A stretch of 31,813 bases of DNA from Eledone cirrhosa (taxonomy: Eukaryota). The position numbers and the translations under genes were made by a program. This document shows positions 10,470 to 31,813 of the stretch, piece by piece; within the stretch, counting starts at the first letter, position 1; every line of letters starts with the position of its first letter. The notes below the pieces were generated by a model that was not told where the DNA came from, did no database searches, and saw only the letters and a program-made list of their open reading frames with translations. The stretch covers positions 1 through 31,813 of the forward strand of contig CAXHJY010000566.1 in the NCBI GenBank assembly GCA_964016885.1, read 5' to 3'.

Positions 10470-12275
10470 TAGGCCCCTTAGAAATAGTATTGCCACACCG
10501 ACAGCCATTGCTGACATCCCAAAAGTCACACCAGTGTTGCTGTTGAATGTCAAAGGCCTCCTGAAACTCACTAACATGGTAAAATTCCATAATTGAGAGA
10601 CTTAGCCATAAGCAATCAAGCAATATGCATGGCACTGACCGAAACGCACCTGACATGCAGTATAGCACATGCGGAAATACATATACCAAAATATACTGTA
10701 TTTCGTTCAGGCAGGAAGGAGAGAACTCATGGTGGAGTTGCCCTGTACATCCGTGAAGATGTCACATCCATTGTACTGTTGACACATTCAAACTCAGCCT
10801 GTGACACACTGGTAGTACATATGAAGCAACTGAAATCGGTAATATGTGTCACATATCGGCCACCCGACGCCCCCAGTCATGAAGGTAAGTTTGAGTATAG
10901 CCTCAGAAGGATGGAAGTCCTTGACAAACTGGACCAGGGTCTCAACATTCTGCTACTGGGAGACTTTAACTTACCAAAGGTCAATTGGCCTGAGGGCCAC
11001 CTCCTCCCTGGAATGACATCACTAGAACAGAGACAGACGGAGTCCCTGCTGGCCCTCACACACAGGCTGTTCATGGAAGAAGCAGTTCTCCTCCCAACAA
11101 GAGACGAGAATGTCCTGGATCTCTGCTTTACAAACAACGCAGTGCTCATCCACAATGTAAAGGTGACACCAACGATTTTATCGGATCATAACTTAGTAGA
11201 ACTAATGATATGTGGTCCGAGAGAGTCAACAGAGAATCAACCATCAAGAAGCACCGGGAACTTATCCAGCCTTAACTTTCACAAGGCTAACTGGAAAAAG
11301 ATCAAGAAAGAAATCCGGAAGCAAAACTGGAGCGACATCACCACACAAGACACCAACACACAGTTTCAACATTTCATGACAATACAAACTATATGCTGTA
11401 AGTTTGTCCCGGAGAAAAAGGCCAACGGACGCAAAAATCTCATTCCCAGAGACAGGAAAATCCTTATGAGACGAAGACCTAAGCTTTCAAACCAGTTAAA
11501 TGCACAACAGAAAAACAAAAAGGACCCTATCAGAAACATGCACTACTTGAAATTGAAACTGCACTCAAAATTTCCCATGAAAAAGAGAGGGCAGAGAGAG
11601 AAATCAGTACCATAGCAAATATTAAAACAAACCCTAGGGCCTTCTTTAAATTTGCAAAAGAGACTGCCTCGGTACACTGCAAGATTGGGCCACTCTTCCA
11701 TAAAGATGGTTCATTAACCGAGGATCACCACGGGATAAATGAAATACTGAATGAACAGTACAAAAGTGTGTTCACACCCCCATTGAGAGACATGCAAATA
11801 ACAAAACCGGAGGATTTCTTTGACGCCACAACACTCCAAGAAGAAATGGCGACCATCAACCACATAGACATAACGGAGGAAGATGTGATATTTGCCATAG
11901 ACGAAATTAGAACAGACTCAGCTGCTGGACCTGATGGATTCCCAGCGGTCCTCATAAAAACTTGTAAGCGTGCCTTAGCAAGACCACTGAAGACCCTCTT
12001 CAAAAGTTCTTTGGCTAACGGTAAACTACCCAGAGAGCTCAAAGAAGGCACAATATGCCCTATCCATAAAGGAGGAAGCAGAGCGGAGGCCAAAAACTAC
12101 AGGCCAGTCTCCCTGATGTCACATATCAGTAAGGTAATGGAACGAATCATCCGAAAGAAATGGATCACGTTCCTCGAGGAAAATGACCGCCTAACTAGCA
12201 CGCAGCATGGCTTTCGCTCAGGAAGAAGCTGCCTTACACAGCTGTTACAACACTGTGACTGGGTACTGAAACAAT
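10470..12275 (+). mobile_element. CR1-like non-LTR retrotransposon (LINE) ORF2 fragment, frameshifted and 3'-truncated
   Basis: APE endonuclease motifs LLNVKGL (10540-10560, different frame), ALTET, GGVALY, YRPP, GDFN, LDL, SDH; tether region NPRAFFKF...LNEQYKSVFT; RT N-terminal motifs AAGPDG, PIHKGG, NYRPVSL, QHGFRSGRSC; similarity ends near DWVLKQ, well before any YADD motif. Clade assignment by motif style. Confidence 0.93.
10537..11615 (+). pseudogene. LINE apurinic-like (APE/EEP) endonuclease domain and start of tether region
   Basis: ORF 10593-11615 holds TET, GDFN, LDL and SDH; the first motif (NVKGL) is in another frame at 10546-10560, implying a frameshift near 10570-10592. Confidence 0.88.
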
Positions 12276-12301
12276 TTGTTTCTCTGATTTTTCATATTTA
12301 G
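11600..12301 (+). pseudogene. LINE reverse transcriptase N-terminal fragment
   Basis: Frame of ORF 11768-12301 extends upstream through IKTNPRAFFKFAK; GPDG, NYRPVSL, QHGF motifs; catalytic YxDD absent. Confidence 0.88.
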
Positions 12302-30455: not shown

Positions 30456-30529
30456 AATATATTTTATCTGATGAGGGCGTACTGATGAAATAGCTCAGTA
30501 TCTCTGAAATATGTATAATAAAATATATT
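30456..30529 (+). ncRNA. Type I hammerhead ribozyme motif
   Basis: AATATATTTTAT-CTGATGA-GGGCGTACTGA loop TCAGTATCTCT-GAAA-TATGTA-TA/ATAAAATATATT; 12-bp Watson-Crick stem I, 10 of 11 pairs in stem II; predicted cut after 30517. Confidence 0.82.
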
Positions 30530-30592
30530 TGATCACATTAATGTCTATATTTATTAATATTTGATCACATGAATGTCTATATTTATTAATAT
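30524..30592. repeat. ~32-bp tandem duplication TATTTGATCACAT(T/G)AATGTCTATATTTATTAA
   Basis: Two adjacent copies, one mismatch, directly after the hammerhead. Confidence 0.9.
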
Positions 30593-30599
30593 TTTGAAG

Positions 30600-30658: not shown

Positions 30659-30815
30659 ATCATCACTGTTTAACGTCCATTGCATGGTTCAGACGGGTTG
30701 ACCGTGCCGAGAGGTATGTCTGGCAAGCGTTATCCATGTCGCACCTTCTTCCAGGTATTTTACTGCTGGATGCCCTAACACCAACCACATTTACAGTGTG
30801 GAACTGGATGGCTCG
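30659..30815 (-). mobile_element. Diverged short retroelement with RTE-type tail
   Basis: Tail matches 22229-22272 in reverse; CTGGATGCCCTAACACCAACCAC resembles a recalled octopus repeat; right boundary approximate. Confidence 0.5.
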
Positions 30816-30863
30816 GTTATGAGGAAGGACAGGCCAGATGGCCTCACTGAACCTGTCTCACAA

Positions 30864-31512
30864 TCGATATATATATATATATAATAAAGAAAGCAGTGCG
30901 GGACTGCATCCAGAATATATTTTTTTTTACTCCGTTTGTAAAATAAGTTGAATTACTTTGAATAAATAATTGTTTCTACTTTAGGCACAAGGCCAGCAAT
31001 TACCCAGTGCATTACTGGTACTTTATTTTATCGACCCCGTAAGGATGAAAGGCAAAGTCAACGTCGGCGGGATTTGAACTCAGATCGTAAAGGGACGTAA
31101 CTATGCTGGAAAGCATGGCGTCCGACCCTCTACCGATACTGCCAATCCACCGCCCGTACCTAACGACACTAAATAATGAATGAATATTACATAATTTATC
31201 TACTAAAATCCGTGGCTGTTGATTAAATACATTTTATAGCTTATTTAAAGATTCACTTCTTTAAAATTGTCAAATGTCAACACTTCCGGTTAGCGGCCGT
31301 TATATTGTAACACTTATAATCGCATATATTTCCGTCGCTAATTTTCTCCTAATGCAGTTTATATATATCGTCTGTTTTTTATGTATCATGGATTACGTTA
31401 CTGATTACAGAAGAGAGTGTAACATAGACTTCGTTCAATTTCTGTGTATAATATCAATATACACACCACACATGCTTACAGAAAACCACCCGAAAGGTGG
31501 TTTTTCTGCTGG
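30864..31512 (+). mobile_element. Candidate non-autonomous Helitron interrupted by a SINE
   Basis: 3' end: hairpin AAAACCACC-cgaaa-GGTGGTTTT (31482-31504) 8 nt before CTGG|T (CTRR, T); 5' end either A|TCGATATA...TAATAAAG (30864) or A|TCTACTAAAA (31199). 5' end uncertain. Confidence 0.55.
30971..31155 (-). mobile_element. Full-length tRNA-derived SINE
   Basis: Differs from 15896-16080 at one position by eye (AATTAACC vs AATTACCC). Confidence 0.93.
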
Positions 31513-31601
31513 TATATATAATATATATGTATATATAATATAATATATATTATATATGAAATACATATATAAATATATAGTTATGTAATAAACAACATAA
31601 G

Positions 31602-31680
31602 ATAAATTCATTTACCGATGGTTTCTTGAAGACAGACGAGCTTGACACTTATCTGCCTTCATTCATCAGAACGAATTTAT
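31602..31680 (-). ncRNA. Type I hammerhead ribozyme motif (left arm of foldback)
   Basis: Minus strand: ATAAATTCGTT-CTGATGA-A-TGAAGGCAGAT loop GTCTGTCTTCA-A-GAAA-CC atc GG-TA/AATGAATTTAT; 11-bp stem I, 11-bp stem II, GUA site; A.A instead of the usual G-C at the base of stem II. Confidence 0.75.
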
Positions 31681-31684
31681 TAAA

Positions 31685-31751
31685 CGTTCTGATGAATGAA
31701 GGCAGACATAAGTGTCAAGCTCGTCTGTCTTCAAGAAACCACTGGTAAATG
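31685..31751 (+). ncRNA. Type I hammerhead ribozyme motif with shortened stem I (right arm of foldback)
   Basis: CGTT-CTGATGA-A-TGAAGGCAGAC loop GTCTGTCTTCA-A-GAAA-CC act GG-TA/AATG; only 4 bp of contiguous stem I remain. Confidence 0.62.
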
Positions 31752-31813
31752 AATTAATTATCTTATGTTGTTTATTACATAACTAAAAAGCTTTGTCGCC
31801 TGCATAGAGCACT

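Follow-up and report, generated by a model that had tools for sequence, protein, structure and literature searches.

A 208-bp palindrome near the right-hand end of the window (the whole 31,813-nt stretch of Eledone cirrhosa DNA that was analyzed) is very probably the stump of a Penelope-like element (PLE), and its sequence is most likely of the Hydra type. On balance it is probable that the locus as a whole records one Hydra-type insertion that was truncated and then folded back on itself, with its two hammerhead ribozyme motifs carried along as passengers. The features on which this reading draws, with the method behind each in brackets where one applies, are:

31518-31577, no strand: TA-rich left flank, GC 0.05, likely insertion target
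31578-31680, minus: left arm, a 5'-truncated, tailless copy of an element 3' end that stops 35 nt past the predicted cut (arm alignment)
31602-31680, minus: type I hammerhead motif, stem I of 11 bp, predicted cut 31613/31612 (descriptor and folding)
31676-31684, no strand: head-to-head junction, palindromic to the single base 31680, likely fold-back point
31681-31785, plus: right arm, likewise a 5'-truncated copy, with 2 nt deleted from one strand of stem I and 3 nt inserted in the other (arm alignment)
31685-31751, plus: type I hammerhead motif, stem I of 4 bp, predicted cut after 31747 (descriptor and folding)
31786-31813, plus: likely one-sided PLE tail, clipped by the window end, with an 8-bp hairpin at 31790-31810 (supplement comparison and folding)

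Results

Structure of the palindrome

The inverted repeat occupies 31578-31785, exactly where an earlier note on this DNA had placed it. Aligned outward from the centre at 31680, the arms were identical in 98 of 108 columns, the remainder consisting of two mismatched columns, seven gap columns and one central base. The earlier note had described an 11-bp stem I in the minus copy whose 5' strand ran into a spacer; the stem was recovered, while the supposed spacer is mostly arm, the sequence being palindromic down to a 1-nt centre.

Four differences separate the arms. In stem I, the plus arm has a deletion of 2 nt on the 5' strand and an insertion of 3 nt on the 3' strand; the other two are an indel of 2 nt at the upper end of stem II and a change in loop III (ACT vs ATC). 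As two of the four fall in stem I, the statement that the differences lie mainly in loops was wrong. The plus arm has indeed lost most of stem I (4 bp remain), but the insertion in the 3' strand had been overlooked. From the pairing and the pattern in Hydra elements, the plus arm would be ancestral in stems II and III and the minus arm in stem I.

Not one of the four differences is a single substitution; each is an indel of 2-3 nt or a change of two adjacent bases, a pattern for which neutral ageing does not readily account; template switching in a hairpin and sequencing error are both possibilities. The change in loop III increases complementarity to the core, as hairpin template switching would. 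The core is kept in both arms, as had been claimed, and the probability that three random events would spare it is 0.61; conservation of the core between the arms is thus expected by chance and gives no indication of selection.

An assembly or library artefact (a chimeric foldback) would suit a palindrome that lies 28 bp from the window end and whose arms differ by indel-like changes. Against it, the left arm stops where published tailless Hydra ends stop and the flanks are non-palindromic on both sides, which makes an artefact very improbable.

Hammerhead motifs in the arms

A descriptor built on the type I hammerhead consensus was run on the whole window and on 200 block-shuffled windows. 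It gave three matches in the window and any match in only three of the 200 shuffled windows, none of which (0/200) held a match with a stem I of at least 5 and a stem II of at least 8. Descriptor and folding agree with the earlier note that each arm, read on its own strand, is a type I hammerhead motif: CUGANGA, GAAA and NUH with three stems, open at stem I, are present in both arms, the plus stem I being only 4 bp. The minus motif has stem I at 31680-31670/31612-31602 (11 bp), C3 at 31669, A.A at the base of stem II (31662/31626), a stem II of 11 bp, G12 at 31625, and a stem III region at 31622-31614 (3 bp and a 3-nt loop). The plus motif has C3 at 31689, A.A at 31696/31734, a stem II of 11 bp and G12 at 31735, and its stem III is a 4-1-4 palindrome (31738-31746). 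In both motifs the cut is at GUA. Both cut sites predicted in the earlier note, 31613/31612 on the minus strand and after 31747 on the plus strand, were right. Positions 10.1-11.1 (usually G-C) are A.A, and so mispaired, in both arms.

The Rfam search that the same note had proposed returned no hammerhead among 24 matches at E<=10. Rfam likewise misses the two other hammerhead-like motifs of the window (see below), and its sensitivity for such motifs therefore looks low. Rfam microRNA matches on the palindrome scored far under the gathering thresholds and were rejected.

Likeness to Hydra-type elements

The arms were compared with 25 Hydra family rows from the tables of PMC8557442, counted by eye after the antisense duplicate of Penelope-13_HM was dropped. 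A 9-nt stem III segment occurs in 19 of the 25 rows and is a 4-1-4 palindrome in 16, as in the plus arm; the stem III tabulated for Hydra-1_Obim has the same four pairs as that arm. The base of stem II is U.U in 14 rows, G-C in seven, G.U in two, U.C in one and A-U after an extra base in one, so that a mispaired base is found in 15 of the 25 rows and A.A in none. A U-U at this position is also reported in PMC3088659. GTTGT lies 4-7 nt past stem I in nine rows, all from Hydra magnipapillata, and 5 nt past it here. The distance from cut to end, taken for 24 rows (Penelope-18_HMa, with the motif at its 5' end, was excluded), is 30-48 nt in 10, 49-87 nt in two, 88-155 nt in 11 and 355 nt in one; the tailless arm ends at 35 nt, compared with 36 nt in Hydra-1_Obim.

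The locus also shares with the Hydra clade a (TA)n target, listed in PMC8557442 for 26 of 27 Hydra families, and a hammerhead near the 3' end; the left flank has a GC of 0.05, and the target is seen on the left only. An inverted, 5'-truncated copy is listed there for Penelope-13_HM. Other features set the palindrome apart. Stem II is 3-7 bp in the Hydra hammerheads of these tables vs 11 bp here, and, compared with the entries for Hydra-1_Obim, Hydra-2_Ajap and Penelope-13_HM (PMC8557442), the palindrome is ORF-less, has longer stems I and II and carries A.A. By eye the sequence is unlike that of Hydra-1_Obim, and it therefore represents a different family. The Hydra-like ends, together with the likely tail on one side, back the origin from a PLE with an inverted pLTR structure that the earlier note had put forward.

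The window contains no PLE ORF with linked RT and GIY-YIG, and a six-frame scan of it for seven short PLE motifs gave no matches. The features by which PMC8557442 defines the Hydra clade are the RT phylogeny, RWK and DKT motifs, a CxCX5C linker and an EN lacking CCHH. The Craig supplement (PMC8557442, files as compared) contained neither three words taken from the arms nor two others, two exact words gave no matches in viral contigs, and a pattern scan of plasmids found no match. A gapped pattern matched three metagenome and three viral loci; all six are without the stems, and these apparently chance matches were rejected. An ORF starting at stem II, as described for the Anolis Poseidon in the text of PMC11167929, was also considered and rejected: an ATG is present, but the frame closes within 20 codons in both arms (by eye).

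A probable tail on one side only

The right flank (28 bases, GC 0.46) is best read, from its sequence, as the tail that PLE insertions bear on one side, and the feature looks to run past the coordinates first assigned to it, with 31786-31813 being element-derived. Comparison was made with the supplement content for Naiad, Chlamys and six Hydra consensus sequences. The last 12 nt of the tail equal the 3' extension of Hydra-2_Ajap and end at +66 from the cut here vs +64 there (by eye), or at +63 if the insertion in the plus arm is discounted. The 11-mer occurs in at least two places in the 584,047-character supplement, the Hydra-2_Ajap extension and the 5' start of Hydra-1_Ajap, where ~0.14 would be expected; line breaks in the files could conceal more. 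The rough chance of the positional match is 3e-5, for a match picked after the fact.

A segment of the form GCT...GCACT, 26-29 nt long with pairable ends, is present in all three consensus sequences of the supplement that extend beyond +60 (Hydra-2_Amil, Hydra-2_Ajap and Hydra-1_Crog; by eye), the end pairing of Crog being the weakest; the remaining three end between +36 and +47. Among the complete 5' ends, also by eye, the motif opens two of three (Ajap-1 and Crog, with C-G for U-A), and Hydra-1_Obim is without it. The 24-nt segment in the window folds into a hairpin of 8 bp at -5.8 kcal/mol, a stability that does not exceed that of shuffled sequences (z -1.1). Judged by these comparisons, the hairpin seems to be conserved among elements of Hydra type from a coral, a sea cucumber, a copepod and Eledone cirrhosa. 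The ends of Neptune, Nematis and Poseidon lie outside the comparison, and the motif may therefore not be specific to Hydra elements. The main text of PMC8557442 contains neither "hairpin" nor "stem-loop", and a search of the open literature, which does not take in Repbase entries, found no description of a tail hairpin.

No target duplication adjoins the palindrome, which a one-sided tail in the right flank would explain; the right junction is outside the window. These ends bear on the possibility that the palindrome is a MITE-like non-autonomous unit copied whole, whether a PLE acts on it in trans or it moves as a DNA transposon. A compact, ORF-less palindrome of 208 bp has the look of such a unit; its ends, however, carry no adjoining target duplication and are not symmetric, an element-like tail stands on one side only, and an RNA copy of the full palindrome would form an extended duplex. 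A MITE-like origin is improbable.

Folding of the palindrome RNA

The hairpin ensemble of a read-through RNA lies at about -150 kcal/mol and a forced hammerhead fold costs 83 kcal/mol (folding energies). Read-through on either strand makes the antisense arm first, and 16 nt of leader were computed to lower the probability of the ribozyme fold ~100-fold. The minus motif alone prefers, by 6.6 kcal/mol, a pairing of the core with the changed loop III (6 bp). The self-dimer of stem III is weak for the minus motif (-3.9 kcal/mol) and reaches -8.2 kcal/mol for the plus motif. As monomers the motifs have fold probabilities of 2e-5 and 2e-3, values that ignore tertiary contacts and were not taken as proof of inactivity. 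In the accounts consulted (PMC4209133; review PMC6765202), PLE hammerheads are weak cleavers that act as dimers. Because each strand contains a single sense hammerhead, the dimeric form reportedly required by PLE hammerheads is unavailable in cis.

The earlier note had proposed that a read-through transcript could form either dsRNA or the ribozyme fold, as mutually exclusive structures. A functional RNA switch of this kind, under selection, could draw on the cores, intact in both arms, and on the minus motif, which retains its 11-bp stem I. It is opposed by the 83 kcal/mol penalty, by the prior synthesis of the antisense arm and the loss of fold probability that even a short leader brings, by core sparing at chance level, and by lesions in each arm (stem I broken in one, the core mispairing in the other), with no dimer available in cis. 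The switch is not supported and is very unlikely. If the locus is transcribed at all, its RNA is predicted to be dsRNA, a double helix of ~100 bp, and by the same folding model the palindrome itself would shut its ribozymes off.

Origin of the head-to-head pair

The course of events under the preferred reading would be as follows. The endonuclease of the element would nick a TA-rich target, and reverse transcription would start in the tail, cross the hammerhead and halt ~10 nt upstream of the core. The end of the cDNA would then fold back (TTT/AAA with a 3-nt loop) and copy itself up to the tailless end, 35 nt past the cut, leaving a head-to-head pair with a tail on one arm only. Four small changes would have damaged the arms later. 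The hammerheads would be passengers; in tandem transcripts made from the parent element they would be active, probably in dimeric form.

Fold-back is the probable route. The shared truncation point of the two arms and a junction that is palindromic down to a single base are explained most simply by one truncation followed by fold-back; on this route, the tail-bearing strand is the first strand, and the 2-nt deletion has to have arisen afterwards. The main rival is twin priming from two nicks, in which opposite strands are nicked, cDNAs start from the tail and from the tailless position, both abort, and the two are joined at microhomology. According to the text of PMC11167929, the Poseidon PLE protein nicks and extends both strands, two starts of reverse transcription bound the tail and a dimer is predicted; two template RNAs would, moreover, account for the differences between the arms. 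Twin priming nevertheless needs two independent truncations within ~10 nt as well as a junction palindromic to its centre, and the start site in that report is no different between strands. It is unlikely, and fold-back after a single truncation is preferred.

Other elements in the window

The window is microsatellite-rich, animal-like DNA, and microsatellites dominated the repeat and Rfam searches of its whole length (150 of 350 rows listed). A ~9-kb degenerate (TA/CA)n microsatellite with extreme GC skew spans 19100-28070 in two blocks, and a frameshifted, 3'-truncated non-LTR retrotransposon with an endonuclease domain and the start of the RT lies at 10593-12301 (plus). No tRNA genes were called in the window, and the ORF at 31265-31540 matched no Pfam family. 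For 30660-31813, 23 sequencing runs are listed (best share 0.38), with no RNA run among them. The sequence at 30968-31150 looks like an octopod SINE-type repeat. A GC-cored hairpin at 31479-31508, ~70 bp left of the palindrome, folds at -14.4 kcal/mol (z -3.8, 0/200 shuffles as stable); a CTRR-type tetramer comes after it, an arrangement reminiscent of a Helitron 3' end.

Single type I hammerhead-like motifs are found on the plus strand at 29398-29460 and 30456-30529, with C3 at 29409 and 30468, respectively; the descriptor passed only the latter. Over 74 nt the two agree at 77%, and beyond the core neither resembles the foldback; they have an 8-nt near-palindromic stem III and a decayed stem II, and a (TA)n tract lies within 45-85 nt after each. 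A second PLE family, represented here by truncated ends, is the probable source of both. The 30468 motif is immediately followed by two tandem copies of a unit of ~33 bp (30522-30593; by eye).

Discussion

The locus is ordinary retroelement debris, with a structure of a kind that has already been published. Paired opposite-strand hammerheads, inverted truncated copies, tails and an inverted copy in a Hydra family are all in print in the sources cited here; inverted, 5'-truncated PLE copies and one-sided tails, in particular, are described in PMC8557442 and PMC3846280. For the Penelope of Adineta vaga, PMC3846280 describes inverted pLTRs joined head to head, with palindromes at the junctions and a tail of 31 bp, read as self-priming, and PLEs have been reported from an octopus genome (PMC13282606). 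The Adineta elements and those in the legend to fig. 2 of Craig (PMC8557442) have the same head-to-head arms and palindromic junction, with one arm shorter by the tail. As described, however, those inverted pLTR insertions retain ORF sequence and often an 8-10-bp target duplication, whereas the arms here are only ~100 bp each and any duplication would fall past the end of the window.

The close pairing of hammerheads on opposite strands is likewise seen in the minimal hammerheads of Schistosoma that PMC4209133 ascribes to truncated PLEs, although the pairs in that account are 100-700 bp apart vs cores 20 bp apart here, and the G10.1-C11.1 pair it calls highly conserved is A.A in the palindrome. 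Non-LTR retrozymes, as presented in bioRxiv 10.64898/2026.07.22.740005, are also non-coding, PLE-related and equipped with a type I hammerhead; they consist of head-to-tail tandem units, whereas the palindrome is an inverted arrangement in which each strand has a single sense hammerhead. Membership in that group was rejected, the window holding only the two inverted copies and no tandem head-to-tail units.

In the text of PMC11167929, the Poseidon PLE protein nicks AT-rich DNA on both strands, and hammerhead cleavage is dispensable in vitro. It is possible, and suggested here only tentatively, that the tail hairpin is the recognition and start signal for the reverse transcriptase of the element, a counterpart of the Poseidon start stem-loop. 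The hairpin offers a concrete cis-element that could be mutated in the in vitro assay already available for PLEs, and it could serve as a tag for finding ORF-less Hydra stumps that escape Rfam. The palindrome is a near-minimal record of how the inverted ends and one-sided tails of PLEs form. If the proposed role of the hairpin is true, a hammerhead and hairpin of ~130 nt would be the smallest unit that a Hydra enzyme mobilises, and the palindrome its smallest footprint.
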